From an uncultured Nitrososphaerales archaeon (GTDB lineage Archaea; Thermoproteota; Nitrososphaeria; Nitrososphaerales; Nitrososphaeraceae), in contig CAVOHZ010000006.1 in the NCBI GenBank assembly GCA_963695855.1, forward strand, positions 96,001-160,000: a stretch of 64,000 nucleotides of DNA, written 5' to 3'. The notes beneath the pieces were generated by a model. The model worked only from the letters and a program-made list of their open reading frames with translations, ran no database searches and was not told the origin of the DNA. The stretch's first letter is position 1. Every line of letters starts with the position of its first letter. Made by a program: the position numbers and the translations under genes. Of the stretch, positions 1-44,015 are shown piece after piece.

Positions 1-304
1 GGTTTTTTTCCAATAAATATTTCATTATTATGTTCGTGCCATCCTCCTTTACCTTTATCTTTCCCAGAATCTGTAGACAAATTGATATAAAAAATTAAGA
101 CAGACGCGTATAAAAGGCTGTATTATTACATATGTTTTAGATTTATAGTAAATTTAATACCAAGTACCTGCTTGAATACTAAATTTGATATGAAAATAGC
201 ACTATATATTTTTTATAAACTAATTATTCTGTCTGATGTTATTAGACGCAGTCAAAAAAAATTCAAGCAATAATAATAAAAATTATTAATTACTTAATAT
301 AGAT

Positions 305-500
305 ATGTCCACAAATGATGATTATAACAAATTCCTTTATACTTTTACTAAAAATGTATTGAATTCAGACAAATCTATAAGATGGGTTGGTATAATAGAT
401 AGAAACGGGATTATTATAAATGAACATTATAGAGAAGGACTAAAACCATTACTAACTAAAGAAGAGAACCAGGAATCTGCAATCAATACAATAGCCGTAA
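305..500 (+). pseudogene. N-terminal fragment of a thaumarchaeal DUF6659/roadblock-like protein
   Basis: VLNSDKSIRWVGIIDRNG...YREGLKPLL is typical of the family; after ~aa 63 the ORF runs out of frame into the ynfA locus. Confidence 0.55.
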
Positions 501-518
501 AGGAGAAGAAAAAACAAT

Positions 519-861
519 ATGGCAATCGAAGAAATAAATCCATTTGTTTCAGGGATGTTATTCTTTGTTGCAGCCCTGATGGAAATAGGTGGAGGTTATT
601 TGGTTTGGTTGTGGATACGAGAGAAGAAGACAATTGTATTGGCATTACTTGGTGGCATTATTCTTTTTGTATATGGCATAATTCCTACTCTTTCAACCAG
701 CCAATTTTGGAAGAGTCTATGCTGCATATGGCGGAATCTTTATTTTATCATCTATAGTATGAGGGATGGTTGTAGATAAAAAAAGACCTGATAAATATGA
801 GATAATAGGCTCATTTGTTGCTGTTTTTGGAGCAATAATAATATTTTATTCTCCTAGATAA
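519..861 (+). pseudogene. ynfA: YnfA (UPF0060) family small membrane protein, disrupted
   Basis: LFFVAALMEIGGGYLVWLW, frameshift near 693, then [38 protein letters not shown]...YSPR* with an internal TGA. Confidence 0.85.
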
Positions 862-940
862 AGTTGCAAATTATTTATTTAGTTTTCTTGATTTATTAGT
901 ATTTGTTAAATTACAGAGAAGATAAATGTAAACGATTACT

Positions 941-1078
941 TTGAAATGTGCTGACTGTATTTGTGATATAGAAGATTGTAAAGTAAGTCAATCATTATTT
1001 GAATGTCCTAGTTGTATTTTCGAAAAATGTTGTTGTTGGGAAAATTTCCATTTTAGTGATGATAGTAATTTTATCTAA
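941..1078 (+). CDS. 45-aa Cys-rich micro-protein (putative metal-binding)
   Basis: TTG start; KCADCICDIEDC...ECPSCIFEKCCCW, 9 Cys; below the ORF-track cutoff. Confidence 0.45.
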   Translation: MKCADCICDIEDCKVSQSLFECPSCIFEKCCCWENFHFSDDSNFI

Positions 1079-1249
1079 TATAGTGAACCCGAGAAAAGTA
1101 CAGACTCAAGGGAGTTGAATAGTCATGGTTTCAATGTTCAATATCATAAATAGAATTTAATATTACTAATTTTTAATTAGATATTTTATCTACATGTAGA
1201 CGTATTTCCTATCAATCTTTATCTTTTACCATTTGTCTTTGTATAATAA

Positions 1250-1393
1250 ATGGCATCTTTCAAATGTAAAATATGCAATATGAACTTTGAAGATAAGAGA
1301 CGTTTAGAAAATCATAAAAAAGTACATGGAAGAAAATCAAAAGTGTCTGAATATGGTGATCCTGATTTTAATATAGATCGTCTAAGAGGATAA
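1250..1393 (+). CDS. C2H2-type zinc finger micro-protein (47 aa)
   Basis: MASFKCKICNMNFEDKRRLENHKKVHG fits F-x-C-x2-C-x3-F-x5-L-x2-H-x3-H. Confidence 0.8.
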   Translation: MASFKCKICNMNFEDKRRLENHKKVHGRKSKVSEYGDPDFNIDRLRG

Positions 1394-1604
1394 AGATATA
1401 AGAAAATGACGAATAATATCTAAAGTTATTGTATTGCACAAACCTCGATAGATAAATGGCAATTATGAGAATATCTCGTCAGGTTGCGAGGTATTTTTGC
1501 CTACAATTCCTACTAATACTATTAATCCCAAAGCCTGTACCTATGGCCGTGGATTAAATCTATTAGAATATTTAAATCTTGGATGATTATCACATCTAAA
1601 TTAG

Positions 1605-2339
1605 ATGGGCTATAACTCAGTTTTGAAGACTACATCTGAGGTGATAGAGGCTGAACAAGGTCTTCGTAGACTTCGACTTTTTCGACATCATTCGCAAATC
1701 AAATCTTGGGACACATATAAAATGATTAAAAAGCTTAGTAGTGCAAACAAGGAATCTTTTGTATTGGATGTAGGATGTTACGAATCTCCTATTTTACCTA
1801 TGTTAAAAAGATTAGGATTTATCAATCTTTATGGTTGCGATCTAGTATTGAAATCATCATCAGATTGCAATTCAAGTTTTACTAATAATAACAATTCTTT
1901 CACGTATCATGAAGATTATGAACCTATAGCCAAAATGTACAGTGACAGATCATATCAACTTTCAATTAGAAACATAGAAGATATAAAGTACAAAGATCAG
2001 ATGTTTGATTATGTGACTTCTTTATCTGTTATCGAACATGGAGTTAATATTGAAAAATACTTTAGAGAAATGAGTAGAATTATAAAAAGTAATGGTTATC
2101 TTTTGACATCTACAGATTATTGGCCTGATAAATTAGTTAACAATAAAAATGTCCTCTCTAAAGGAACACCAGATAATATTTTCAGCAGAGATGAAATTGA
2201 AAAGTTGGTAGAGGTTGCAGATAAAAATGGATTAAAACTAATTGAACCAATAGATTTTGAATATAAAGATAAGGTTGTTCGATGGAATTCAATAGGTTTG
2301 GACTTTACTTTTATTTTCTTTGCTATGAGAAAAGATTAA
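1605..2339 (+). CDS. Class I SAM-dependent methyltransferase
   Basis: VLDVGC motif I, FDYVTSLSVIEH, SRIIKSNGYLL. Confidence 0.9.
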   Translation: MGYNSVLKTTSEVIEAEQGLRRLRLFRHHSQIKSWDTYKMIKKLSSANKESFVLDVGCYESPILPMLKRLGFINLYGCDLVLKSSSDCNSSFTNNNNSFTYHEDYEPIAKMYSDRSYQLSIRNIEDIKYKDQMFDYVTSLSVIEHGVNIEKYFREMSRIIKSNGYLLTSTDYWPDKLVNNKNVLSKGTPDNIFSRDEIEKLVEVADKNGLKLIEPIDFEYKDKVVRWNSIGLDFTFIFFAMRKD

Positions 2340-2398
2340 ATGAAATTTTTTTGAAAAGTTGTCAAATTCTTAAATAATATATTTATTATCACTTCATA

Positions 2399-2635
2399 AT
2401 GAAAACAACAATATCTTTCAATGCTATGATCTTAATAATGACTCTTGGAATTGGTATAATAGTTGGAGGATTAACAGGATCAGCACTTGCACAAACAGAT
2501 AATCAAACTAAGGCAGAACAAGGTAAAAATAATACGGAGAGAGGAAGTGGTATAATGGACAAAATTGGTGATATGGCAAAAGAGAAAATAAGTCAAGGTA
2601 TACAAGATATTATAGGTGGAGGCGGAAGTCAATAA
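2399..2635 (+). CDS. Small secreted hypothetical protein
   Basis: Hydrophobic N-terminus ending ALA-Q followed by a hydrophilic tail. Confidence 0.65.
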   Translation: MKTTISFNAMILIMTLGIGIIVGGLTGSALAQTDNQTKAEQGKNNTERGSGIMDKIGDMAKEKISQGIQDIIGGGGSQ

Positions 2636-3042
2636 TAAATGATGGTAATTTGATGATGTTTACTCAATAATATTTCTCAAACATTTTTAGATTTTATAAT
2701 TAAAAATTATAAATATAAGTTAACTTTAGATTAACGCCAAATAGATATTTAATTCTCGGATTGGGATTCTAACCCTTATCCATCAAATGTGGGTTCTACT
2801 ATCAACTATTAAAATATTTATTATATCAATGTTTAGACAGGATCGATGGTTTCTTTTCAAATTTTTATTACATCTATATTTTTGGTTCTTATAATTTGAT
2901 CAAGAAATAAATGGTAGAGTTACTATTGCTGCGATCATTATCATACATTTTATTATCATTTAACATGATTCATTCATACGGTATAAGTTTTTTTGATAAT
3001 AAACCAATAATGCAAATAATTTTTAATCAACCAATCAATCAA

Positions 3043-3330
3043 TTAATCAAGACCTAACCTTTTTCTAATCTTTTCAACAGGAAAAAAAAGGCAAATCTCC
3101 TATAACAGATCTTGCATATTCATTTTCAATATCTCTAAGCAGATTTTTCTATTTTTTCTTTACCTTCTTTTGTTTTAAGAACTTGTAGTGGGGTCATATT
3201 ATCAAAAGATGGTATCTTCATATTAATCCAGTCCTCATAGTATTTTTCAAAAAAATCATCTATTTGTTTAGTAACTGAAGGTGGAATCTCATCATCTTCA
3301 ATAATATCTTCTATTTCTTCTGCTCCATCA
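3043..3330 (-). pseudogene. C-terminal remnant with an MbcA/ParS/Xre antitoxin-like (DUF2384-type) motif
   Basis: YYEDWINMKIPSFDNMTPLQVLKTKEGKEKIE..LLRDIEN...KIRKRLGLD*, read across homopolymer frameshifts. Confidence 0.5.
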
Positions 3331-4423
3331 TTAATTGTCTTTTGTTATTATTATCTTTAGACTCTTGATGCTCAATATCAAGACATCTTTTAATAATGAT
3401 AAAGTTTATGATATAATATCTAGTCCAGAAAACTTAACTATAGCAAAACAATCTGCTTATTCCGTAATATATGAAAAGAACTTTGTTCAACCAAATCCCA
3501 ACCTAAAAATAACAGGTCCCTACAAGAAAGCAGAATTCCTTGCTATGTCTACCAATTCATATAGGATGATGAAAATGACCCTACTTTTAGACACCTTTTT
3601 GGCTTTTGAAGAGATACTTCCCTTATCATTTAACGATTTCCGCCTTAAACCTGCCTTCCTTCATTTTCAAATCTTGTCTTAGATTCGTTCTAGCCAAGTA
3701 AATAGGTTGTATGCTTGCTATCTTATCTACATATGCAATTATCTAAACTGTATGACAATAATATCAAGTTAATGTCAGAATACGTATATTATGAGTGATT
3801 ATTTGCCAATTCCACTTAACAGTGGAATTTTGAAGTGTTAAGAGCAGGATATACTTTTTCCTTTGGTTTTAAATTGGAGGCTGTGAATATCTGTTCTCAA
3901 ATATTTTATTGAATCAATATTACTACTTTGTCCTGCCAACTGCCAACAGCAACAAAGATTATATTAATAGTATTTTACTTTGTCTATATCGAATTTAAAT
4001 AAATGCTGAAATAGCAAATTTATAAGGAGAAATTAGCAGGGGGCAAGAATTTAGAATTCATAAAAAAAACGGGAATCTAAATATGGTAAAAAAGAAGATA
4101 AAACCAAAGCAAGAAAAACAAATTGTTGAGAGGATATCTATTTCCACCCTTTGTCTCTGAAACGATGATCGATCATAAATTTTTTATATCATTGTGAATT
4201 CATGAATTCAGCAGTTGCTTTTTCTGAATATCAGATAATTTCAGGATGTAAGACTTGGGCACATGTTAACGTAAGAGTACTGAGCTAAAGCTCTTTCTAT
4301 CAAAGTATCTTGATAACACTGATACAATATTGATGAAATATGAGATACTTAGTCTGGGTATCTAATAAAACAAATTTTCAAAAAATCTTTTTTCATAAAA
4401 CAATGAATTTGTAATGCGACATG

Positions 4424-5146
4424 GGTGCTGTTAACTTAAGGAAAGAGCTATAGCTGTGAAGGTTCTATTCTAACAATATATGCTGTTAAGATTTGTCAGA
4501 AATAGAACATCCACATGTATAGTAATGTATTCTTTGTATTTGTACTTTCTTGGTCTCAGTCTACGTAATTCATCCAAAGCATTGGAACTGTTTAAGGACC
4601 AAAAAAGAAGTTATGTTGCTGTTTGGAAATGGATTCAACGATTTGGTTCATTACAGATTTACAAGAGAAAAAGAGTATCAGCATTCATCATAGATGAAAC
4701 TATAATTCAGATTGGTAATCAACATTTCTGGTTGTGGATCTGTATTGAACCTGTTCACAGATCTGTGCTTGGGATCTACATCTCAGAAGAGAGAAACATG
4801 TTTGTAGCAGAGAATTTTATCCGATCTCTTGTATCCAAATATGGTAGACATACAGTATACACAGATGGTGGTACGTGGTATCCACAAGCATGTAACTTTT
4901 TAAATCTGAAACATCGATTACATTCACCCTTAGAGAAAAGTCTGATTGAAAGAATGATGCAGTATTTCAAGGATAGGACAGAATCTTTTGATGATTACTA
5001 TCCATGTATCAACAACCAAAAGAAAAATTGTGATCTACAACATGTATACAATTGGATCAAGTTATTCATATATCTGTATAATGCAAAAATCAGAAAGAAA
5101 TTTCTATTCGAAATTGGAGGTGAAATAATCTTAAGTTAACAGCACC
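4424..5146 (+). mobile_element. IS6-family insertion sequence (723 bp)
   Basis: 17-bp perfect TIR GGTGCTGTTAACTTAAG at 4424-4440 and 5130-5146; 8-bp direct repeat GCGACATG at 4416-4423 and 5147-5154. Confidence 0.95.
4480..5139 (+). CDS. IS6-family DDE transposase
   Basis: [12 protein letters not shown]-like segment; IIDET, YTDGG, LIER DDE motifs. Confidence 0.9.
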
Positions 5147-5168
5147 GCGACATGTACGAATATTTCAA

Positions 5169-5310
5169 ATATATTTGAATTGTAGTTCATGTAAGAAGGA
5201 GTTTAATAATCTTGTTGAAGGAGTAAATTATTCCAGGTCAGTCATAGGGTATTATATCATTTTGTTCAGATAACTGTTGTAAAGCATATCTTAATGAAAA
5301 ATTGAAATAG
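5169..5310 (+). pseudogene. Inactivated copy of the TRASH/MYM-like zinc-binding micro-protein
   Basis: Start ATG changed to ATA and one extra base (GTCATAGGG vs GTCATGGG) relative to 10107-10247. Confidence 0.7.
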
Positions 5311-5545
5311 TTAAATTTCTTAATATCAATAAAACCAATAATTTTACAATAAATAAAAATTATTTATTAAAATTAAAAATATTGTTAAAAAAAAGAATAC
5401 AAAATGTTTTTATAAAGAAAGATAAACAAATTGAAAGGATATACATGTAAGATAAACCAAGAAAAGAATATGGAAAAATAAAAAAATATATTATTATTTA
5501 ATATAACTAAAAATGGTAATTAACTTAATCTTAAACATTGGCAGT

Positions 5546-5686
5546 TTATTTATCTTCATATTGTTCTTCTTCCACTTTATCATCTTCCTCCTCCTGTTTA
5601 TCATCCTCTAGATGATGAGTTTCATCCCTCATTTCTTCTCTTTCAGTTTGATCACTATTTTCCTCTCTTTCAGATTTATCACTCAT
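5546..5686 (-). CDS. Small, highly acidic hypothetical protein (46 aa)
   Basis: MSDKSEREENSDQTEREEMRDETHHLEDDKQEEEDDKVEEEQYEDK; coding-like purine bias. Confidence 0.55.
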   Translation of the reverse strand: MSDKSEREENSDQTEREEMRDETHHLEDDKQEEEDDKVEEEQYEDK

Positions 5687-5955
5687 GATTATAATGATAG
5701 AAGTGTAGCTAATAACTTTAATTATTGTTATGTTTTTTTATATTTTTCGAATCTCTGTATTTAGCATAGAATATCTCATTCTAGCTATCAGTACTCTATT
5801 CCCAACAATTTTGAATAATAAAAATATTATAATACTTTTATGAATGCCTAATTTATTTCAAAACTATTAGTAATAAGATTGTTTAGAAGTTTATGTAGAG
5901 TATGTATACTTTAATTACAATATGTTATTATAGTTGATAAAAAATTAAATTGAAT

Positions 5956-6600
5956 TTATTGTATTATCAAAACAGGTTTACTAATATGATTCATTATTTT
6001 TCTGACATCACTAAATAATGAGCTAAACCATGAATCTATATGATAAGTTAACATAACGACCAAATCATAGCTATTATTATTAATTTCATTCACTATTTCG
6101 TCAACTACATTACCAGTTAGAAATTTATAAGAAATTTTATTTTGACATCCAGCTTCTTGACATTTCTTTATTTTTTCTTCCATAGCATCTATTACATCAC
6201 CTTTGATATTTCTATGAAACTCTTTTTGATTATCCTTTTCTGATTTCTCATATGAGCCTTCTAAGGAAACATTTCCAAATTTTTCAAAATCGTGTAATAT
6301 ACGAAGTATAATTAATTCTGCTCCAGTGGAATTGGATAAAGAGACAGCATAATTAAGTGCTTTATTTGATATATCTTTTCCATCATCAGTAACTAGTATT
6401 TTCTTAAAAGAAGGAAGGTTATCTTTTGAAATTGAATAATCTTGTAATTCCCTGGATTTATTTCCTAATTGTGATTGTTGTTCTTCTTGTTCTATTTCTG
6501 GTGTAACACTTCCGTCAGGATGAATTGATTCACTTACTTCCATATCTAAAAGATTTTCTTTAGCATCTGAAGATATAGAAGGAGCTTTATCACTACTCAT
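5956..6600 (-). CDS. Universal stress protein (Usp domain)
   Basis: FKKILVTDDGKDISNKALNYAVSL...GNVVDEIV...YDLVVM...KPVLII. Confidence 0.9.
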   Translation of the reverse strand: MSSDKAPSISSDAKENLLDMEVSESIHPDGSVTPEIEQEEQQSQLGNKSRELQDYSISKDNLPSFKKILVTDDGKDISNKALNYAVSLSNSTGAELIILRILHDFEKFGNVSLEGSYEKSEKDNQKEFHRNIKGDVIDAMEEKIKKCQEAGCQNKISYKFLTGNVVDEIVNEINNNSYDLVVMLTYHIDSWFSSLFSDVRKIMNHISKPVLIIQ

Positions 6601-6687
6601 AATATAATGGTTGATTACAAATATATAACTATATTTTAATTCATAAAAATATAAATCCTAATTATTTTATAATACATACAAAATAGA

Positions 6688-6981
6688 TCATTGCAATTTT
6701 ATGATTTCATCCCATGTTCCAGATAAAGAGAGCATATAAAATTTACTCTGATCTGCACATTCTAAATTTATAATATCTGCAGCTGATAGTTGAATTTGAA
6801 ATAATTTATTTAAGAACTGCAGAAAACTGGGTCCTGCAACTATACTTTTAGCTTCTTTTTCAAGAGGTAGGTTATAGTATTTTTGCAACGCTTCCACTAG
6901 ACCCAAACTACTAATTTCTCCTACTAATTCTGCCAGATCTAAAAATTTTGAATTTCTTTTGTATACTTTAAGCCTAGCCAT
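6688..6981 (-). CDS. Hypothetical protein
   Basis: 97-aa ATG ORF with protein-like composition; no recognised motif. Confidence 0.55.
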   Translation of the reverse strand: MARLKVYKRNSKFLDLAELVGEISSLGLVEALQKYYNLPLEKEAKSIVAGPSFLQFLNKLFQIQLSAADIINLECADQSKFYMLSLSGTWDEIIKLQ

Positions 6982-7060
6982 TATAAAATCATCCTTTGTA
7001 TTCCTCTACTCAATCCATAATATAATATTATCATTATTGTTTATCTATAACCAAGATATA

Positions 7061-8227
7061 AGTCAAGTGTCATCATGAATGTCGTTACACCATCTTCCAA
7101 ATCTCTTATCCAGATATTCTGATATTGCATCTTTTTGTTCTTCTATATTGGTATAGAATCTATTTGCACACACATCTGATTTTATCTTCTGGTTTACTTT
7201 TCTCTCATTTGGATTAAGGTATGGCGCCCTCTTTGGAAGGTGTATTATACTGAGCCAGTCTTTTTTCTGTCCATTGATATATTTTTTTGTCATCTTGCTT
7301 AGGTGAAATGAAGCGTTATCCCATACCAGTACAATTCTTTTCCAACCATTATTTTTCATTACATGTATCTTGAGATTCTCTAAATGGTTTATAGCATTGG
7401 TGGAATTTGATCTGTCATAGAAATCATACAACAGATTCTGTTCAGGCCATAGCATGGATATGTACATTGAGAATTTCTTTCTACTACCGTTATGCCTAAT
7501 TTTTTGTTGTTCACCTTCAAAACTCATTGACTTTCTTATACATGGCTTCTGTGTTACTATAGTTTCATCTTCAAAGACCAACATCACTTTCTTTTTTTGA
7601 GAGCTGATGCTACTTGTTTGTAGTTCTTTATCTGTTTCTTTCCCTCTTCATAATCAGCTCCATGTTCAAGTTCAAGCTTGGGTCTCTTACATCTGATACC
7701 CATGTCCTTCAGTATCCTTTGAAGGTGTTTGAAACTGATTGGAATGTCAAGTTCTTCTGTAAGACACTTTGCCAGTGACCTCAGACTCCAGGTGTTTCTG
7801 ATGTAACCAAAAATATTGGGATTGTTAAAAAGTACAGAAAGTATAGTCTCTCTATCCTCATCTGTTATACGGAATTTTGTACCACCTGGTTTCCTTATCT
7901 CCAATCCTTTTGTTCCTATCTGGAGATATGCCGATATCCATCTTTGAACTGACCTGATACTGACACCATGTTCCTTCCTTTGCTATATCTGCAAAAGTTC
8001 TACCGTTGCTCTTCTGAAGTATTGCCATTAATCTGCGATAATGCTTCTTGTCGGTACTATATTTCATCAACGACTTTAGACTGTTCTTCTGTCCTGTGGT
8101 GAGGTTGAGTTTGGTAGTAGAACCATGGTACATAGAATTATGATATTCAGGATACCTTAAGCTTTACCTATTCAATAATTTAGACCTGTTAGTTAAAAGG
8201 ATATGACATTAACCAAGCCACTTGACT
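7061..8227 (-). mobile_element. IS630-family insertion sequence
   Basis: Ends TA|AGTCAAGTG...CACTTGACT|TA (short TIR, TA target duplication) enclosing a DDE transposase. Confidence 0.85.
7063..8133 (-). pseudogene. IS630 transposase in three frames (one likely programmed frameshift, one inactivating 4-bp duplication)
   Basis: HTH pieces at 7858-8133 and 7584-7904; catalytic piece at 7063-7587 with FEDET, VWDNASFH and LPKRAPYLNPNE. Confidence 0.88.
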
Positions 8228-8244
8228 TATGAAATTGATTTAAA

Positions 8245-9620
8245 CTAAAGAATGAAATTATTATCATAATTGGGTTTCCAATAGTTGTGATTCCATTTGA
8301 TAAACTCTGGTTTTTGTTTGTTATCGTCATATTTTATTTCATATATCTCATTATGATCGAGTATTGTATTAATGAGTAACTCACAGTTAACATAAGATAT
8401 AGTATTGGAAGCTGAAATCCAAATATTGAATTTTCTGACTTCATCCTTTTTGGCATCAAGTTGATATTCATCTAATTGAATGATATATTTATTTTTCCAC
8501 AAACCGATCTCCATACTTTTAAATTGAAAAGTAGTAGCTTCTTCAACATTTCTTCTTATTTCATTAGCATATAACTTTTCAATCTGTAATAATGTCACTC
8601 CCTACTCGTTATTCCAATTAAGAAAATCTATACAGGCGTTTCTTGTTTTATGATTCTCCCAATCTTTTTCTATACGATGTTTTTCCATCATCATAATTCT
8701 AACACTTTTTGAATCTACGTTATCTTTACCTGACCTTCTCCTTAATCTTGCCTGATATTTTAGTAATGAAGTATTTGACTGTGACTTTAGAAACGTACTT
8801 GCCAACATTGTGTTTATAGAATCATAGTCGACAGCATATTGGAAAAGTGAACGATACATATTTTTCATTGATTCATCAAGTAAAATTATTTTCTGACCTT
8901 GATCTATTTTCTTTTTTAAACCAATTCCTTCATATCCGAAAAAAGTATCAAACGGGCCAGACAATTCAGAATCAATATTAATTCTATCAATCATTCCTCG
9001 TTTATCTACTGGAAAATTACTATTTCCAAAAATAGGGACAGCAGCGTTTGGTCTATTATTACAAAAATTAAATACATGTATAGACTTTTGATGTTTAACA
9101 AAGTATTCACCCAGATCCTGAAAGAATTGGCTACTCGTTTGTGATGGTAAAAGATGTTCTAATTCGTTTTTGTGTTTAGTAATAAAACTTTCATATGCAC
9201 TGAGATCCAATAGAATATGACCTTCATCACAAAGCTCACATAATCTTCTTACTATTACTGGTCCATTTCCCCAAACAGGTATTCCTACTAAGGATTTAGC
9301 ACTATCGATTTCAATTGCATCACCTCTTGCAATTCCTATTTTCAATGCTAAACAAGATTCTCCTCCTTTTAGTTGAGGAAATTCTGTATGTACTTTTAAG
9401 GCAAGTTGGAGAGGTAATAATGAGGAATCTTTCTTAAACCAGATGATAACTCCGTCACCTGTAAACACTGTTTGAATTTGTTTTTCATATGGAGATAAAT
9501 AATCTTTAATTACAAGTAGTAAATCTTTAATATTATCATTCTGTATATCGGTATCTTTTGAAGAACCGACAATATCAATACAAAAAAATCATACATCATA
9601 AAAATAATGACGAATTTCAA
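8245..9620 (-). pseudogene. Class III adenylate/guanylate cyclase-domain protein with two in-frame stops
   Basis: One frame reads YDV*FFCIDIVGSS...VFTGDG...LKIGIARG...VWGNG...RRLC; TGA at 9589-9591 and TAG at 8602-8604; ORFs 8602-9468 and 8245-8598 share a frame. Confidence 0.8.
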
Positions 9621-9846
9621 ATATCTAATCTTTACTATATGCTATAGTATAATTAGAGGGGAAAGAATAATTTATCTATATATGGATATTTTTAAATTAT
9701 CATTCTTTATTATTTTAGGTTAATCCATCTACATCAATTAGAAAAATTAAATTTCAAACATTAACATTGTAATAGTCTTAAATTTAAATACAGGATGAAT
9801 TTAAATATTTATTTAAGATACGTATGTATTATCCATTTTAGATGTA

Positions 9847-9862
9847 CTTTGTTGCACAACTA
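9847..9862. mobile_element. Solitary IS5-type terminal repeat
   Basis: CTTTGTTGCACAACT closely matches the IS5 left end CCTTGTTGCACAACT at 44017. Confidence 0.5.
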
Positions 9863-10028
9863 TGATTTTCGTTAATTTTGATTAAAAAATGAACGTACTA
9901 TCATATAAGGAATCTATTGTGACAATTTATTGTCATAATCTTGTATCATATTATCGAGATATTCATACTCGTGAGACAAAATAATAGATTGCAAGTTGTT
10001 ATGTTATCTATTAAAATGATGCAATACG

Positions 10029-10265
10029 TCTAATAAAAACAAACTTTCAGAAAATACTTTTTCAGGAAACAATGAATTAATAATGGCACATCTATAAATA
10101 TTTCAAATGTATTTGAATTGTAATACATGTAAGAAGGAGTTTAATGATTTTGTTGAAGGAGTAAAATATTCCAGCTCAGTCATGGGTATTATATCATTTT
10201 GTTCAGATAACTGTTGTAAAGCATATCTTAATGAAAAATTGAAATAGTTAAATTTCTCAATATCA
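10029..10265 (+). repeat. Copy 2 of the ~240-bp dispersed direct repeat
   Basis: Uninterrupted homologue of 4361-5328. Confidence 0.9.
10107..10247 (+). CDS. TRASH/MYM-like zinc-binding micro-protein (46 aa)
   Basis: MYLNCNTCKKEF...ISFCSDNCCKAYL; CxxC...FCSxxC pattern. Confidence 0.7.
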   Translation: MYLNCNTCKKEFNDFVEGVKYSSSVMGIISFCSDNCCKAYLNEKLK

Positions 10266-10555
10266 TTTCATCTAAAAGAATAGGAAATATAATATAATTT
10301 GTTGTTTCTATTGTTTAATATGAGAAATGGTGAAGTTATTGATTTTAGGATTGGAAGTCATTTTAGTTTTTAAATTGTTATAATTTATTTTTACAAAAAA
10401 AATTATTTTATATATTATTCTTAAATAGTTTAATTAGATATTTTATATGCTTAGCATAAATATATGATAACAGTCACAACCAAATGATAACATAAAATAA
10501 CAAATGATAGCAATGATGATATCATTTATTAACTGCTTTTTTATTGCAATCAACA

Positions 10556-10743
10556 ATGACTGAAATCATCAATAAATTTGGAAAAGAGAAAAAAGTTATA
10601 GAATTACATTTACAAGGTAAAACTATTCCTGATATTGCTATAGATGTTCATATTGTCATTTGGAGATATTTCAAAAAAATAAAGAATATGACAGAAAAAT
10701 AAGATTAGAAACACAAAATGGTCTATCGAATGGCATCATTAAT
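10556..10743 (+). pseudogene. Truncated HTH protein of a Nitrososphaeraceae-type family
   Basis: NKFGKEKKVIELHLQGKTIPDIAIDVH, then frameshift; ends just before IS481. Confidence 0.55.
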
Positions 10744-11796
10744 TGTTGTACTTGCTAACATAGGTTACAATTTCATTTACTGACATGGGTAACACTTTCT
10801 AGTTCTGCTAGGAAGTGTATAAAAAATAGAAATACAAACAAGATATAATTTAATTCATGAAAAAGAATGGACTGGAGATACGGTAACTGATATTTGTACT
10901 AGATATCAAATATCCAGAAAGATATACTACAAGTGGAGGAACAGGTACCTAAAGTATGGAATAAATGGTCTACATGATAGAAGTAGAAAACCACACAATA
11001 TACAACCTGCAAAAATAACAAAAGAGATAGAAGAAGAAATATTGGATTTACGTATAACAAAAAGATTTGGATGTAACCGGATCAGATTCAGGTTAAAAAG
11101 ACTAGAGGAGATGTCACTAAGTACAAGAATCATATACAAGATATTGAAAAGACATGGTCTGAATATCCTGGAATGCAAGATAAGGAATAAAAGAAAATGG
11201 AATAGGTTTGCAATGAAAAAACCCAATCAAATGGTACAGATGGATATTTTAGGTCCTTTTTATCTAGAAAATTGTGCTCAAAAGAACTATTTTATCAGTT
11301 GTGAAGACGATTGTTCAAGAAAGGTATCAAGTGACTGGTCTGAAAGAAAAAGAAGCATAGATGTATTGCATGTACTAGAAGACTATATTGTAGAGAATGG
11401 GAAACCAGAAAAGGTAATGCATGATAATGGTAAACAGTTTACATCCAGAATATTCAGACGTTTTCTACAACGTAATAACATTAAAGATAAATCCATACCT
11501 GCCAGATATCCGCAACTACAGGGAAAGATAGAAGCATATAACAAGATAGTAAAAAACGAATTTTTAGCAGCAGAAAATATTCCTAATGTAGAAGATGGAA
11601 AGAGAATGTATGCCATGTTTGTAAAAGCATACAATGAAGAAAGAGAACATGGTGGCATCAATGGTCACACACCATCTGAAATGTTTCTTAGGAAAGGAAG
11701 ATTAAATAATCATAATGGTAACAAGAAAATCAAGCAGATAAAAAGTGTTACCCATGTTGGTAAGTGAATCTGTTACCGATCTATGTAAGTACAACA
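10744..11796 (+). mobile_element. IS481-family insertion sequence (1053 bp)
   Basis: TGTTGTACTT...AAGTACAACA termini; subterminal inverted motif CATGGGTAACACTTT / AAAGTGTTACCCATG; 6-bp direct repeat ATTAAT on both sides. Confidence 0.92.
10815..11767 (+). CDS. IS481-family (rve integrase-core) transposase; 5' start out of frame by one base in an A-run
   Basis: Frame open 10823-11767 (YYKWRNRY..GINGLHDRSRKPH; VQMDILGP, MHDNGKQF, QGKIE, YNEEREHG); GTG at 10815 needs one more A. Confidence 0.85.
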
Positions 11797-12384
11797 ATTA
11801 ATCAAATAAAAAGAATTTCAAAATGTAGTAGATCCTATGAATTATTGTTACAAGGAAAGAAGCCAGTAGAAGTTGCAATTGAAATAAATTTATGTTATCA
11901 CGAAATAAGAAAACATTAGAGAGAATATTTGAGACTGCGAAAAATGAATGAGTTGTATCAGATATATATTGATAATGAATATCAGCACGAGCCCGTCGGA
12001 AGTAACACCAATAGAGCTGCAAAAATAAGAGTCTAATGTGATAGTATAATGGATAATATTTAAGAGATCATAGGTATTCTATCTTCACAAATATGGGCAA
12101 CTGTATCTGTAATTATCAAAGTTACAGAAATTAGTATAAACTTTAATAAGCTAGGCAAAATGCTAAAATAACAATTTTTAAATGAAAAATCTAGTCTATC
12201 AAAAAATGAATAAATTATCATACTATTTTTATTATGTTCATTAGGAAGTAACGATTGTAATTAAATTAAATCTTATTATCATTGTAACTATTTAATATAA
12301 ATTACTAACCATCTTCTCATTCAGGTGAATTGGCTCTTTAAAAGACATAAAGAGGTGTGTGTATAGATAATTGTTATTTGTTAT

Positions 12385-12921
12385 TTGGGGAAAAAAAATA
12401 ATATAAGTAATAATAGAATTTTCAATAGATTTCTTACTAATTTTTACAAGAAATATAGAGAAACTATTTTAATGAATAAGGATTTACTTATTGCTGGGAC
12501 ATTTGGATTTTTAGCTAGTGCTGTTATAGCTGAACTATATGCGATTTATTCTCCTAATGACGTATTAACTTCTACAGTAACAGTATTGGTTGGATTTATA
12601 ATATACAAGATAATTTTTATAATTCTTTTTCACATCGACAACAGACAAAAATATACCGATAAATTTACTAGCCAGATTAATTTCAATATTCTAAAACAAA
12701 TAATAAAGAAGATGGTATTTGCTTGGTCTATATTTGACATTGTTAACAATCTATCACGATGGATAATACTATTTGAATTATTATTAACAGGATTCAGACC
12801 CTTTGAAGCAGCTATGATATCTTCTATAACTGCTTCTTCTATATCTTATTTAGCAATAAATATAATCTCAAGACGTATCAAAATCTTCTCATCATTAAAG
12901 AAGAAGAAAAGACCAAAATGA
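12385..12921 (+). CDS. Hypothetical membrane protein (about 4 TM segments)
   Basis: 178 aa with several hydrophobic segments. Confidence 0.7.
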   Translation: MGKKNNISNNRIFNRFLTNFYKKYRETILMNKDLLIAGTFGFLASAVIAELYAIYSPNDVLTSTVTVLVGFIIYKIIFIILFHIDNRQKYTDKFTSQINFNILKQIIKKMVFAWSIFDIVNNLSRWIILFELLLTGFRPFEAAMISSITASSISYLAINIISRRIKIFSSLKKKKRPK

Positions 12922-13014
12922 AAATAATGCAAAAGATTTCTTATAATTTAAAATAAAACATTCCCAAGATGTCTAGAACTTATACAATAAACAAAGTGTA
13001 TCTACACAGAATGA

Positions 13015-13191
13015 TTATGCACTATATATTTTATGTTTTTGAACATGGCATTTTTCAGTACAAAAATAGTCTATGAATATATAACATAGAATTGGATTTT
13101 CCTGAATACTTTTTCCGCAAGTATTGCAATATAAAAATGTCTTAGTAACAAATACTTTATTATTAATGATATTATCTGTGAATTTCTGCAT
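13015..13191 (-). CDS. Small zinc-binding hypothetical protein (58 aa)
   Basis: LYCNTCGKSI...YFCTEKCHVQKH. Confidence 0.55.
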   Translation of the reverse strand: MQKFTDNIINNKVFVTKTFLYCNTCGKSIQENPILCYIFIDYFCTEKCHVQKHKIYSA

Positions 13192-13348
13192 TTATGTTCC
13201 AATCACTTCCATTTATCATTGAATCTGGTCCAAATACATAAAATCTACCATTTTCAACAGTAAGAAAAGTCTCATTTACCTTTGAATTATTATTACCATC
13301 ATAATCAGTTTTACTACAATGAAGGTTTAATAATCCTAAGATTCTCAT
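13172..13348 (-). CDS. Small hypothetical protein (58 aa)
   Basis: ATG ORF overlapping the start of 13015-13191 by 20 bp, operon-like. Confidence 0.35.
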   Translation of the reverse strand: MRILGLLNLHCSKTDYDGNNNSKVNETFLTVENGRFYVFGPDSMINGSDWNINAEIHR

Positions 13349-13439
13349 ATGATATACTTAATTTATAATTATTAAAGTTTTTTTATCCTTTTTTATATTA
13401 ACAACAATCCAAAGACAATAGACATCAAGGAAAAAATTG

Positions 13440-13465
13440 CTATTTTTTCGGCGCCGAAAAAATAG
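13440..13465. other. Perfect 26-bp palindrome
   Basis: CTATTTTTTCGGCGCCGAAAAAATAG equals its own reverse complement. Confidence 0.9.
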
Positions 13466-14261
13466 AAATAGAATATTTGATGACATTATCGAATAAGATG
13501 GAATGATATGGCTCAGATTCTACCCATCCTATTATCATTAGATCGTTTTTCTTTGTGTAATGATATAATTATATCGTATTTGTGTTATTTATGATATTTG
13601 GTAGTAAAAAATATAAAATATTTTTTCATTATATGTATTATCGATAATAATTTAGCTCACGTACAATCTATTGGGATATCTGTAGACCGATCCATCTCTT
13701 GTTTATTTGGGTATACATAGTATGAATTTGTCTCTTCGTAATTGGTACGATTCTAACACCATCTGCATGTTAGTCCAATAAAAGGGAGCGCTCCTATTAG
13801 GGCTATCCCTACAATCATCCCTATGATGCAGATGTTGAATTTTGTTAATTTGAACATAACTCTTTATTCTCTTTAGAATAAAAAAAGATTTTCCACATCT
13901 GAAAATAGAGTTGTCTGTAAAGAAGTAACGTAATTCAGAACTTACAAGTAAGAAGACCAATAGAGTTATAAGATACTGTATTTTGGTGTCGTGATTTCAA
14001 TCCATCAATATATTTAAATATGTTAGAATTGTTATTAGTATTTTACTAAATTTATGGTAAAAATTCTATTATTCGGGTTCACCTTTTATCAATAGGGTTC
14101 AACTACATATTCCGCAAGCTGGTCGGGAGTAGTGCCCTCCATGTAGTAGGGTTCTACTACATTCTATATAGCTTTTTAAGAATACATTTACACATTATTT
14201 TGATTAGAGATTTGAATTAATTAATTAAATCTCTATTTATACAAAAGGTCTAACAGTATCA

Positions 14262-14972
14262 TTAAAGCAATCTTACAATTGCAAAACCAATTATAAAGCC
14301 CAAGATTGCACCAAAAGTAGGAAGCCACTTTCTGTCTTTATGTGCTTTAGGTATCATATCATAAAAGAGCATATAAAAAATACCTCCAGCAGATAATGCG
14401 AATATCAGTCCTATCATATAATGTAATCCTTGTAAAAAAAATAATCCTATTAATCCAAGAATAACAGGAATTATAGATATAACACCAATCGCATAAAGAG
14501 CTCTTCTTGAATCCTTGAATGCTGTTTTTCCAGTTCTCATCTCTTTATACGCAGCAATACCCTCAGGAATATTTTGTATCCCAATAAGTAATGCTATTGC
14601 TAAAGCTGGACCAGCTGCTATTGAAGCTCCTATAGCTAAAGATTCAGGTAGTGTATCTAAACCAATACCAATTAGTATATCCGCTCCTCCACCTTTACGT
14701 GTAGCTATCACATCAGCAATTGTAAATATGATAGAGCCAAAAATGAAAAATAAAAATGTTTGAATTACTCCAATTGATTTTTCTGCCTGAATTACCATTC
14801 CAAATATAGCAGCAGATATTAAAATGCCTGCTCCAAATGCAGTTAAAAATAAAATAACGGATGTGGAAAAATGTACATACTTTCCAATTATTGCACCAAT
14901 AAATGAAGTTCCACCAGCAATTAATGTGATACCAATGACCATGAAAATATCAGTAAATGAAATAGCAGACAT
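14262..14972 (-). CDS. ZIP-family metal transporter (ZupT-like)
   Basis: AFGAGILI, LDTLPESLAIG, IQNIPEGIA, AGGIFYM...MIPKAH. Confidence 0.88.
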   Translation of the reverse strand: MSAISFTDIFMVIGITLIAGGTSFIGAIIGKYVHFSTSVILFLTAFGAGILISAAIFGMVIQAEKSIGVIQTFLFFIFGSIIFTIADVIATRKGGGADILIGIGLDTLPESLAIGASIAAGPALAIALLIGIQNIPEGIAAYKEMRTGKTAFKDSRRALYAIGVISIIPVILGLIGLFFLQGLHYMIGLIFALSAGGIFYMLFYDMIPKAHKDRKWLPTFGAILGFIIGFAIVRLL

Positions 14973-15337
14973 CTTATTCTAATAATTCAAATTAATATTA
15001 TATTATAAATTTAATTGGAAATAGTTTTCAAGTTAAAATTTACTAATCTATTTTTAGGTTATGATTTTACTTGATAACTTTTATCAAGAAATTATAGTCT
15101 AATGTGTTAGTAAAGAAGATAATATTAAAGATTTATGTTTAAATTTTGATATCTTCTCACGAGATAATAATGCCTTTATTTTATGAAAATACATTTGAGA
15201 ATTTCAATCCTTGAGCGGGAACATTATGCTCGCTTCCAATCCAACTGATTGATTTAGTCATAAGTTAAAATTCGACTATTATCAAGAAATAAACTTTTTG
15301 ATATTTTTAGTTCCAAAATTCGGTTTATAGTTTTCAT

Positions 15338-15565
15338 CTCGTAATCCTATAATAGTTCTATTAAAACTGATCCCATATAGACAAATATCCAGCAGTAGCA
15401 ACACTTCCAATCCTATAATAGTTCGTTTAAAACTATATTTCGAATTTACATTTGCGTAGCTGAATCTTGCTTTAAATCCTATAATAGTTCGATTAAAACT
15501 ACAGTTATGACCTTAAACTCTATGTCTTTAACCTCCTTTCAATCCTATAACAGTTCGATTAAAAC
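15338..15565 (-). CRISPR. Orphan CRISPR mini-array: 4 repeats, 3 spacers
   Basis: 30-bp repeats at 15338, 15404, 15470 and 15536 (exact 66-bp period), consensus CTTTCAATCCTATAATAGTTCGATTAAAAC, reverse complement GTTTTAATCGAACTATTATAGGATTGAAAG; three unrelated 36-bp spacers. Confidence 0.93.
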
Positions 15566-15622
15566 TTGAACACGATGAATTACGATTATTACAATTACAA
15601 TCCTTATCTAATGATTCGTTAA

Positions 15623-15835
15623 TTATTTATTTGGATCTTTAAAATCCTGTACAAATTCAAACTTGTTCAAGTCATAACTCATAAATTTGCTATAACAGTT
15701 AATACATAATTTTCTCTTATTCGCTACATCAATTTTTCCTTCGTTAAATCCCTTCCTGCAGTACCTATTGTCACATGTAAACACTTCATTATAATTTACC
15801 CAAATATCGTCAATTGACTCTGGATACATCGTCAT
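15623..15835 (-). CDS. Small Cys-rich hypothetical protein (70 aa)
   Basis: TCDNRYC...KLCINCY; ends 57 bp from the array. Confidence 0.6.
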   Translation of the reverse strand: MTMYPESIDDIWVNYNEVFTCDNRYCRKGFNEGKIDVANKRKLCINCYSKFMSYDLNKFEFVQDFKDPNK

Positions 15836-15912
15836 ATTATAATAAATTTATCAGACCAATTAAAAAAGTTTGTCTTAGAATTTTTTAATCCTAACCCAGT
15901 TAGCTAATAATG

Positions 15913-16390
15913 TCAGCAGTAAATTCTATAATTACTTTTGGAGCTATAGCACTTATCGGTTATATTCTTTATAATAAATTCTTTCCAGGTCAGGGTATTG
16001 ACCAGATACTTCAGGGTATAGGCTCTTATTCCTTTTGGATTAATTTTCCTAGATAATGTCACACTATCTGTTTGAGTTGGATACGTATTTCTATCCCTGG
16101 TTATTAAAAGTTCTCTTTCACTATTGTTATAGTCTCTCACTATTATCTTGTGTTTATGAATTATTTTTATAACTTCTTTATAGTGTACATGACCATCGTG
16201 GCCATCACGGTTTCTGTGGTAAGGACCATCCTTTGGTAGTGGTTTGCAGTTTTTGTCTTTTGAAGGATCACATGGGTGGGGTTGTTGGTAGTGTTGTTCC
16301 TGGCTCTGTCTCATCTGCTCCTCAGGCAACACCAAAAGGACCAAAGAATTCAGAAGCACTTACATCTTCTCCAGCAGTTGTTTCAGCAGC
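15913..16390 (-). pseudogene. Fragment of a low-complexity, probably secreted protein
   Basis: Pro/Thr-rich segment, CDPSKDKNCKP and KEVIKIIHKHKI read across frameshifts. Confidence 0.35.
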
Positions 16391-16394
16391 AGGA

Positions 16395-16592
16395 GAAGTA
16401 AATCCATTATTGTTAATGATTGTATATGCTCTATCTGTATCTGTTGCTTTAATAAGTGTCACAATTCTATCAGTTAAAGTAATTACTACTAATATACAAG
16501 ATAAAATAATTTATTATACTAAATATCTGCCAAAAATAAGTGCTATAATATTGGCTATTATGGCTATAGCATTTGGATTTGGTTTAGTTTAA
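16395..16592 (+). pseudogene. C-terminal fragment of a nickel/cobalt transporter-like membrane protein
   Basis: NPLLLMIVYALSVSVALISVTILSVKV...KYLPKISAIILAIMAIAF; no matching N-terminus. Confidence 0.5.
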
Positions 16593-16662
16593 TAACAATA
16601 TATATACACTTACTTTTTTATAGTAAATTTGAAATCTTTGGTTAGTGTATATGTTATTTAAT

Positions 16663-17058
16663 ATGAGTTCATTAGAAGCAGAAATTAAACGTAAACCTTA
16701 TACAGGAAAAGATCCAATGTCACCAGAAGAAATTCTCTCACATGAACCTACTGCTGTAAAACGAGATCCACATGATCAAATAATTGCGAAAGGAGGAAAG
16801 ACAGGGACTGATACAGAAGAAGCAAAAGAAATGTACAGAAAAAAAGGTATGACAAAAGTATATCCATCACAAGCAGAAATTAAACGTAAACCTTATACAG
16901 GAAAAGATCCAATGTCACCAGAAGAAATTCTCTCACATGAACCTACTGCTGTAAAACGAGATCCACATGATCAAATAATTGCGAAAGGAGGAAAGACAGG
17001 GACTGATACAGAAGAAGCAAAAGAAATGTACAGAAAAAAAGGTATGACAAAAGTATAG
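16663..17058 (+). CDS. Hydrophilic hypothetical protein made of two identical ~62-aa units
   Basis: ORF-track translation; in-frame internal duplication. Confidence 0.7.
   Translation: MSSLEAEIKRKPYTGKDPMSPEEILSHEPTAVKRDPHDQIIAKGGKTGTDTEEAKEMYRKKGMTKVYPSQAEIKRKPYTGKDPMSPEEILSHEPTAVKRDPHDQIIAKGGKTGTDTEEAKEMYRKKGMTKV
16676..17057 (+). repeat. 187-bp direct repeat x2 (period 195 bp)
   Basis: 16676-16862 and 16871-17057 appear identical. Confidence 0.92.
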
Positions 17059-17142
17059 TAATGTAATAGTAGTAATAGAAAATTTTAAACTTTCATGATA
17101 TTTTTTTGTTCAATTGAATTGATTGATAATGTCAAATATCAA

Positions 17143-17460
17143 GAGCCTATCCGAAAACTTCTCCTCTCTTATATGTGATTCAAGCACAGACAAAATGTAA
17201 TATCGCAATATAGTTATCTTCCTTCTTTTCCCATCTAATCAATAATCGTCTGAATCGATTCATCCATGAATATGTTGTTGTTGGGTATTTGCTGTAGATG
17301 ATGGTGGTGGTGGTCTGCAAACCACTATACTCTGAAGAGTTGCTTTTGTCATCTTCATATCATGTCTATTAGCACCATCTACAGTAATTCCAAGAGGAAT
17401 GCCCTGACCCTCTACCAAGAGACTGCGTTTGGTACCTGATTTACTCCTATCTGTTGGTAT
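17143..17460 (-). mobile_element. Internally deleted IS5-family remnant
   Basis: PTDRSKSGTKRSLLVEGQGIPLGITVDGANRHDMK; end motif GAGCCTATCCGAAAA. Confidence 0.8.
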
Positions 17461-17620
17461 CGTATGGAAATTTCAGTACAATCAGATTTTTATCAATTGT
17501 ATAAGAATAACTAGAGATTTATATACTCTTAAAATAAATATTTGAAAATATAGTTTAGCTGGTAATACTATTAATAGATTTTATATATACTAATAGATAT
17601 TATATATTATAGAATGTATA

Positions 17621-18262
17621 ATGCGATATTTTGATAATAATGGTACTAATCTTTTATCCAATGAACATATCATGTTATTGTACGAAGATAAGAATAAGCG
17701 TAATGATTTTATCATAGATATTATTAATGAAGGATTAAAAAATGGTTGTTTATGTATATACGCATCTGTCGAGATAGACAATTCTAAAAGTATTTCACTG
17801 ATAGATAGTTTATCTTCTAGAATAATAAATTATGAAGAAAATATCAAGAATGAGAATCTAAAATTTATCAATTCTAAACCTTATTATTAATCTGCACTAA
17901 AAGGAGATTTAACACTATTTGAAAAGTTGAAATCAGAATTAGAATATATATTGTATAAGCGTCTTTCTGAAGGAAAAAAAGATAAAATACTAATCGTTGG
18001 CGATGTAGCTTGTAATTTATATGAGACTAGACATTTTAAAGAATGTATAGATGAAGAAAGATGGTGGCAGGAAGTTCATGCAGACTGGAAAAGAAACAAC
18101 AAAGATATTACTGTAGTGTGTCCTCATCCTAACTATGTCTTTAAGGCAGAATCATTGCAACAGATAAAGAATAAAATTAGTGCTAATCATACTATTACAA
18201 TTGATATAGAAAATGAATATTCGTTGCAATACTTCAAATCTTTTTGGATATTGTCTTTTTGA
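17621..18262 (+). pseudogene. MEDS-domain sensor protein interrupted by an in-frame TAA
   Basis: EHIMLLYED...INEGLKNGCLCIYASV, TAA at 17888-17890, then same-frame SALKGDL...ECIDEERWW...VVCPHP. Confidence 0.8.
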
Positions 18263-18349
18263 TTCAGGTGCTTTTAATGCAAATAGAAAGTTCTTAACAG
18301 GATCGACATTATCCTCATAATTTTCTAATTCTGGTTGAATTTGCATCAA
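18230..18349 (-). pseudogene. N-terminal stub of a site-specific (tyrosine) integrase
   Basis: DPVKNFLFALKAPESKRQYPKRFEVL resembles the N-terminus of Nitrososphaeraceae integrases; lies ~40 bp past the tRNA 3' end. Confidence 0.6.
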
Positions 18350-18391
18350 TATTGTGTTGTTTTGGGCCTATATAAGTAGACATATATGACT

Positions 18392-18466
18392 TGGGCCCAG
18401 AGGGATTTGAACCCTCGACCAACTGCTCCGCAGGCAGCCATTCTATCCAAACTGAACTATGAGCCC
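18392..18466 (-). tRNA. tRNA-Arg(GCG)
   Basis: GGGCTCA acceptor stem, anticodon arm GCTGC-CTGCGGA-GCAGT, T arm GAGGGTTCAAATCCCTC; no intron, no encoded CCA. Confidence 0.96.
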
Positions 18467-18522
18467 ACATCTGATAATAAAACAGTATAAACATGAATAT
18501 TTATAATATATACTCACTCATT

Positions 18523-43813: not shown

Positions 43814-44015
43814 CGATAAATTATTAGTACAGATATAAAATTTTATGGTTAAAACAAGCATATTGATCTAAAGTTATGAAGTTAGGGATAATATTCTATT
43901 ACAAGATATGTGTTGATTAAGTATGTTAGATATAGACTATCCTTGCTTGCGATTATGGACTAATTTATTTGTCCTTGGTCAAATACTGAATAATAAATCA
44001 GAAATATTAGAATAT

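Follow-up and report, generated by a model that had tools for sequence, protein, structure and literature searches.

A short orphan CRISPR array, probably a decaying relic, in a tRNA-Arg island of an uncultured Nitrososphaerales archaeon

Is a four-repeat CRISPR array with no cas gene beside it a working set of guides, or what is left of one? The question is raised by a stretch of 64,000 nucleotides (hereafter the window), positions 96,001 to 160,000 of contig CAVOHZ010000006.1 (here C6) in assembly GCA_963695855.1, from an uncultured archaeon of the family Nitrososphaeraceae. The original prediction offered two readings of this locus: an element-borne mini-array served by Cas in trans, for competition between elements or gene regulation, or else a relic. 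The evidence favours the second. We put the probability at roughly three in four that the array is a non-functional, decaying orphan relic of the family's type I-B-associated arrays. Orphan, degrading arrays are already known as a kind: those in cas-less genomes have been described as shorter and perhaps degrading genetically (Bernheim et al., Nucleic Acids Res 2020, PMC7145637), and stand-alone arrays have been inferred to derive from cas-linked ones through cas loss (Krupovic et al., Environ Microbiol 2019, PMC6563490).

Structure and repeat family of the array

A repeat search of the window located four repeat copies, at positions 15338, 15404, 15470 and 15536, with start-to-start spacings of 66, 66 and 66 bp. 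On the minus strand, each 30-nt repeat opens with GTTTTAA, and the set runs from the leader-proximal R1 (15536..15565, 3' end GGATTGAAAG) through R2 (15470..15499) and R3 (15404..15433) to R4 at the trailer end (15338..15367). Between them on the same strand lie the spacers S1 (15500..15535), S2 (15434..15469) and S3 (15368..15403), which are 36 nt apiece and mutually unrelated. The search thus bore out the predicted architecture of four 30-bp repeats, a 66-bp period and three unique 36-bp spacers. Relative to the 30-nt majority consensus, R1 and R2 carry one mismatch each (that of R2 within its 3' ATTGAAAG part), R3 carries two and R4 carries four, leaving agreement at 26-29 of 30 positions. 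All four repeats are distinct, as had been noted. The mismatch counts, with the worst copy at 15338-15367, and the trailer comparison described below both agree with the proposed minus-strand orientation, in which the degenerate repeat marks the trailer end. The T reported after each repeat on the plus strand is present in the window, but it is unconserved in the arrays of relatives and was given no weight.

In its regularity (equal-length direct repeats, a fixed period and unique spacers) the locus has the structure of a CRISPR array. Its shortness might still raise the suspicion of a tandem repeat that arose by chance or from coding sequence, or of an assembly artefact, as might the silence of Tandem Repeats Finder, which did not call the array (as expected for unrelated spacers), and an Rfam scan that matched the tRNA alone and no CRISPR-DR family. 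The chance of this explanation is negligible. It is refuted by the exact 66-bp period between unrelated spacers, by the match of the repeats to the one that forms arrays of 13-32 units beside the cas operons of relatives, by a reversed-pattern control with 0 hits, and by independent contigs that contain the array. When contigs from four DNA runs were compared with the array, X1 and X2 (from two soil-metagenome runs of one study, possibly of the source sample) were found to carry it, spanning it with 0-1 differences, and a further metagenome contig, L105, contains a variant. By structure and by ancestry, the locus is a genuine CRISPR array.

The ancestry is apparent across the family. When up to three mismatches are allowed, 55 of 238 family genomes, from 14 of 18 genera, contain the repeat, a count that takes in the unpublished genome G216. 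Because the same pattern read backwards had 0 hits in the 238 genomes, this occurrence in relatives is not due to chance. One relative, G143, has a variant of the repeat with two mismatches, and 32 copies of it form an array that directly follows seven cas ORFs on their downstream side. These ORFs make up a complete type I-B operon, and each exceeds its NCBIfam cut-off: Cas3 (238 bits), Cas5b, Cas7/Cst2 (179 bits), Cas8b1, Cas6, Cas4 and Cas1b (465 bits). This adjacency assigns the window repeat, by sequence similarity, to the family's type I-B-linked repeat, a link that had been suspected from the form of the repeat. Type I-B Cas7 was found in 13 of the 238 genomes, and comparing the two tables places it in 9 of the 55 repeat-holding genomes, leaving 46 without it.

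Cas genes, leader and repeat drift

The window's genome (G000) is assembled to 3.55 Mb in 11 contigs and is 99.87% complete. HMM searches of this genome returned 0 matches each for Cas1, Cas6_C, RAMP, Cas2, Cmr2 and cas3_HD, while the eight matches to cas3_core are to generic helicases, all of them below the cut-off (best 79.4 bits versus 102.45). The seven Cas proteins of G143 had no tblastn match anywhere in G000 at E<=1e-3. With 15 ORFs of G143 as queries, matches were returned for one transposase and one unrelated ORF only, and a tblastn search at E<=1 for Cas remnants beside the mini-arrays of G000 gave nothing but noise. The orphan status first claimed from the lack of cas genes in the window is extended by these searches to the whole assembly.

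A similar picture emerged for the genus. Among its 25 genomes, I-B Cas7 and Cas1 were each detected in 0, and Cas6 in one (G200), where it is a pseudogene with in-frame stops. These searches cover known Cas families, and G000 is in 11 contigs, of which C4 ends within a related array; an unassembled or extrachromosomal cas module is conceivable. As a side observation, the G200 pseudogene (L087, G200:C70:4745-5410) shares 36% identity with a second Cas6-like ORF, located beside cas3 in G143, and its end runs directly into a repeat-spacer-repeat unit on the same strand.

The repeats themselves differ from those of cas-linked arrays. Relatives with such arrays have identical repeats throughout (32/32 in G143, 23/23 in G088 and 13/13 in G019), whereas the window has four distinct repeats in four, which fall short of near-identity even with the terminal repeat excepted. 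The consensus repeat has weak end-to-end pairing (-4.5 kcal/mol, with 14 of 200 shuffles folding as well), and this only predicted pairing is lost in R2, R3 and R4.

Upstream of the first repeat, the window has no conserved AT-rich leader with a promoter. Seven of 14 upstream flanks in relatives have in common the leader motif TTTATAAA...GGAGGYTGACC, which is absent from the upstream flank of the window. This flank (15566..15622, minus strand) is the 3' region of a small ORF and no native CRISPR leader. The ORF (15623..15835) encodes 70 aa, is Cys-rich, matches no family and lies just upstream on the same strand as the array. Copies of the ORF region occur at C6:90866-91322 (91% identity), in G200 (96%) and in L105, and the array-less paralogs of the flank (C6:90866-91322 and G200) begin precisely at the repeat edge.

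The array has also been duplicated together with its surroundings. A 2.15-kb segment (15123..17276), all three spacers included, recurs on contig C5 at 97.9-98.3% identity; an insertion sequence splits the C5 copy, and the right edge of the segment abuts a transposase fragment. Aligning the C5 copy with that on C6 shows 3 differences in 120 repeat positions, 1 in 108 spacer positions and 25 in 1172 flank positions (Fisher p=0.74), a comparison with very few substitutions. From these small counts there is no sign of constraint on the repeats, which drift at the rate of the flanks. The variant in L105 is a third version of the locus. It keeps the degenerate R3 and R4 along with an identical S3, so the core of the array has been frozen since the C6, C5 and L105 copies diverged. 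Spacer lengths differ by 1 nt among the three: S2 has a 1-nt indel in L105, where it measures 37 nt, and S3 is 35 nt long in C5. S1 is missing from L105, whose first repeat is a perfect consensus. Either the loss of S1 by deletion in L105 or its old, polarised acquisition in the G000 lineage could explain this difference.

The window array therefore lacks several marks of a working array: it has neither cas genes nor a leader, and its repeats are not uniform and not conserved. We infer that it no longer functions. It resembles the orphan arrays described by Bernheim et al. (PMC7145637) in being short, in residing in a genome without a cas cluster and in having repeats that can be assigned to a subtype by similarity. 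Unlike that survey, which concerned bacteria, the host here is an archaeon whose genus has no working cas set in the sampled genomes, and unlike the arrays as described there, this one was duplicated along with its flanks. Some features count against a relic, among them the perfect first repeat of L105 with its missing S1, and the co-orientation of the array with the ORF upstream.

Spacer targets, island setting and alternative roles

The spacers had been proposed as leads to elements infecting ammonia-oxidising archaea. No search returned a target. The suggested blastn-short comparison of S1-S3 with their own genome recovered the arrays themselves and, beyond these, only 16-19-nt noise at E>=1. 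Public collections were scanned for exact matches: S1, S2 and S3 had none in viral contigs, S1 had none in metagenome contigs and S2 had none in genome contigs. The one exact match of S3 in metagenome contigs is the variant of the same array in L105 and no protospacer. A mismatch-tolerant scan of family genomes covered S1 and S3, and neither occurred at three or fewer mismatches in 237 genomes. Blastn of the whole array gave three noise matches (E=0.2-0.7) in a phage collection and no match in a plasmid collection, and a spacer of the C2 type was without match in viral contigs. Since no spacer found a target, the window locus on its own is an ordinary orphan array that offers no usable lead to viruses of ammonia-oxidising archaea. 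The wider pattern of arrays in genomes without cas genes also serves as a warning that the activity of such arrays should be checked before they are used to link hosts with viruses.

A role other than targeting could be imagined from the position of the array. Because the array is co-oriented with the 70-aa ORF and begins 57 nt downstream of it, read-through transcription from the ORF is possible. Such transcripts might yield crRNA-like or repeat RNAs that regulate genes or soak up the Cas proteins of invaders, and crRNA-like regulators and repeat decoys have been described (bioRxiv 10.1101/2023.03.03.530964; PMC11656645). The crRNA-like regulatory mini-arrays of the former source likewise have few repeats, some of them degenerate, but as described they are inside cas loci and act via Cas, whereas the window has no cas locus. 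Moreover, no partial spacer match in the genome is notable, the best being 16-19 nt at E>=1, and the repeats are not conserved above background. We find a regulatory or decoy role very improbable. In a variant of this idea, the array would block the uptake of CRISPR-Cas, and Almendros reportedly described such anti-cas orphan arrays in 2016. When 28 spacers of the genus were compared with 199 kb of cas loci from 10 genomes, the best score (32.2 bits) was within the range spanned by 20 shuffles (26.3-38.2 bits), and the anti-cas reading was rejected.

The tRNA-anchored island in which the array had been placed was supported by comparison with a relative. The 3'-terminal 22 nt (18391-18412) of tRNA-Arg(GCG) (18391..18467, minus strand) recur as an exact direct copy at C6:89860-89881, 24.5 kb away and 6.1 kb left of the window start, making a putative att pair. 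In the closest relative, G197, the right flank is 95% identical to that of G000 and the site is nearly empty, with the tRNA about 245 nt from the homolog of C6:88058-89333. This near-empty site implies that about 24.5 kb (C6:89882-114390, including window positions 1..18390) is extra in G000, and the island is not present in G197.

The island is a decayed one. Its insertion sequences are IS6-like (4480-5139), IS630-like (7058-8230) and rve-type (about 10735-11805), and the remaining content includes gene fragments, a Usp, a methyltransferase and a piece of a ZIP transporter. No tyrosine integrase was found in the island, all 13 hits for that family in G000 being elsewhere, and searches for replication or conjugation genes identified none, nor any mobile-element hallmark besides the insertion sequences. 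Comparing the island's ORFs with PADLOC and PHROGs returned nothing but one weak ZorA-like coiled-coil match. A transposon bounded by terminal inverted repeats around the array was considered and rejected: the IS630 terminal repeat occurs at 7059 only, and no convincing inverted repeats flank 15123-17276. Pairs of 23 nt and 19 nt involving S2 are at chance level by a rough estimate. Among minor features, two adjoining short ORFs at 17621-18262, just within the tRNA end of the island, have a MEDS-domain match that is weak and falls short of the cut-off (E=2e-4), and they resemble pieces of one broken gene. A 137-aa ORF at 16645-17058 matches no family and was formed by a 195-bp tandem duplication (16670-16862 and 16865-17057, 99% identical), of which the C5 paralog has more copies.

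The island setting bears on whether the array could be a functional mini-array, in which Cas supplied in trans loads three guides against competing elements. The Cas would come from a visiting integrated element, plasmid or virus that bears a type I-B system. Consistent with such a role, the island is lacking in the closest relative, S1 varies at the leader end, cas-less sister species have pristine arrays with wholly turned-over spacers, and another genome of the genus (G213) has a one-spacer array on a multi-copy IS630-type element. There is also published precedent: CRISPR-Cas of type I-B in two soil members of the group is described as sitting on integrated mobile elements, and stand-alone arrays as occurring on conjugative elements (PMC6563490). 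However, no Cas was detected in G000 or its 24 congeners, and the repeats of the larger arrays in G000 are unrelated. All four window repeats are mutated, three of them in the 3' end that encodes the handle. There is no leader, no excess conservation of the repeats over their flanks and no protospacer found, and the island is without integrase, replication and conjugation genes. Viral contigs do not contain this repeat, whether sought as the exact consensus or as a degenerate pattern. We therefore consider the role first proposed for the array unlikely.

The window array has in common with the integrated-element arrays of Thaumarchaeota (PMC6563490) the phylum-level setting, an I-B-related repeat family and a location in a putatively integrated island. 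The stand-alone arrays described there have 69-96 spacers, reside on conjugative elements and match a host array with cas genes, whereas this one has 3 spacers, degenerate repeats, no cas genes in its host and a decayed, integrase-less island. With the mini-arrays of Sulfolobales viruses (Medvedeva et al., Nat Commun 2019, PMC6858448) it has in common a count of one to few spacers and a putative carrier element without cas genes. The repeats of those mini-arrays are reviewed as being the cas-linked repeats of their hosts, with spacers against related viruses (PMC11656645); in contrast, the window repeats match no cas-linked host array and no spacer match was found.

Origin of the array and other arrays of the genus

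The flank on the trailer side suggests where the array came from. This flank (15200..15337, minus strand) is a paralog, about 70% identical, of a 113-nt trailer found both on contig C4 and in G197. The window flank closes with a decayed piece similar to the tRNA-Thr 3' end (about 15200-15262), where neither ARAGORN nor Rfam called a tRNA. The sequence that follows the last repeat, over roughly 110 nt, is seen again next to other mini-arrays. On C4, a related array (G000 C4:134571-134876) with at least 2 repeats before the contig end points its trailer end towards an intact tRNA-Thr(CGT), whose 3' end is 113 nt away. G197 (L053/L100, G197:C51) has the same arrangement at tRNA-Thr(CGT), with 7 repeats of which 6 are identical and with the same mutated terminal repeat, and on the far side of its array synteny with G000 extends for 13.7 kb (95% identity). 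Although the site is orthologous and its flanks are about 95% identical, the G197 array has no spacer in common with G000. A copy on contig C2 is identical to C4 across 246 nt, the final 15 nt of the tRNA among them, and another degenerate copy is at C10:836731-837002.

Other observations concern the sites and edges of arrays. The C4 and G197 arrays each have an internal duplicated spacer. A second array site is near tRNA-Thr(GGT): G195 (L054, G195:C14) has an array of 12 repeats, 10 of them distinct, about 900 nt from that tRNA, and G000 (C10:822922-824897) has one repeat-like remnant with 6 mismatches about 1.9 kb away. The edges of mini-arrays can also coincide with breakpoints in homology, as at L052 (G200:C76:1896-1995), a repeat-spacer-repeat unit positioned where the homology of a metallophosphatase-like gene stops, and at window positions 15566 / 16025, with the paralogous segment beginning at the first base after R1. 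Such breakpoints would fit recombination between dispersed repeats that reshuffles their flanks.

Judging from these sequence comparisons, the window array is probably a copied array end. The terminal repeats, the trailer of about 110 nt and a piece of tRNA-Thr would have been copied from an array locus adjacent to tRNA-Thr, either by recombination between dispersed repeats or by carriage on an element with a tRNA-Thr-like attachment site. The copied end would then have landed in the present 24.5-kb island at tRNA-Arg, which is overrun with insertion sequences. A rearrangement with its breakpoint exactly at the first repeat may have removed the leader, and a later, further duplication would have produced the C5 copy. 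In a cell with no Cas6, Cascade or Cas1-Cas2, transcripts of the array would be neither processed nor used and the array would gain no spacers, while its repeats and spacers would gather substitutions and 1-nt indels at the neutral rate.

Arrays elsewhere in the genus complicate this relic reading. Two cas-less sister species have pristine arrays of the window class, with 6 of 7 repeats identical in G197 and 3 of 3 in G194. Because these arrays are pristine and the spacers of G197 and G000 are unshared, Cas activity in the lineage may have been recent or intermittent. In its boldest form, the CRISPR memory and machinery of the genus would be on separate mobile carriers, with arrays read and refreshed only when an I-B cas module visits. 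The window array would then be an old member of this pool, possibly loadable via its one nearly intact repeat. We regard this as a long shot. It draws on the dispersed settings of arrays in cas-less genomes of the genus, which include tRNA-Thr sites, islands and the cargo of an IS630-type element. If cas modules do come and go on mobile elements, this would bear on how CRISPR immunity is kept up in soil archaea with very mobile genomes. The value of the window array is as a data point in a family where the repeat class is present in 55 of 238 genomes and I-B Cas7 in 13, and in a genus whose arrays span pristine to decayed with no working cas set in 25 genomes.

More interesting than the window array are the pristine arrays of the cas-less sisters and the array-bearing element of G213, a genome of the same genus. 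This IS630/DDE_3-type element is 1.74 kb long with 61-nt terminal inverted repeats (L081:410-2144, G213:C249; loci L071-L084), and G213 has 8 complete copies of it besides several partial ones. Its cargo, which starts about 150 nt in from the left end, consists of two perfect repeats of the window class with a 37-nt spacer between them, and a second copy of the left terminal repeat is at 889-915. The cargo was found in none of the 24 other genomes of the genus. In the 8 clean copies of 11 (L076a, L076b and L078 were dropped for truncated or non-homologous flanks), the repeats have 1 substitution in 480 positions versus 48 in 3804 for the flank (p=0.038), and with all 11 copies the repeats set against the spacer give p=0.0026. 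This is a weak hint that the G213 repeats are under constraint, and the copies are non-independent. The G213 spacer had no exact match in viral contigs and no notable match in G000. A limited literature search found no report of insertion-sequence-borne CRISPR arrays or of thaumarchaeal mini-arrays.

Lastly, other repeats also form arrays in G000. Two loci (C8:550856-551614 and C10:1185517-1186396) hold 12 and 13 copies of a 30-nt repeat that is unrelated to the window repeat, and a third (C8:198147-198403) holds 4 copies of a 37-nt repeat. All of these arrays have perfect repeats, and none is adjacent to cas genes. Beside the C10 array there are, among others, a HerA-like DUF87 ATPase and a metallo-beta-lactamase/RMMBL nuclease, and a copy of IS630 is inserted right at the end of a C8 array. 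The load of insertion sequences is very high in the window and across the genome: the IS6-like element (window 4424-5141) and another at 44015-44959 are each repeated dozens of times over the 11 contigs, several of which end in them.
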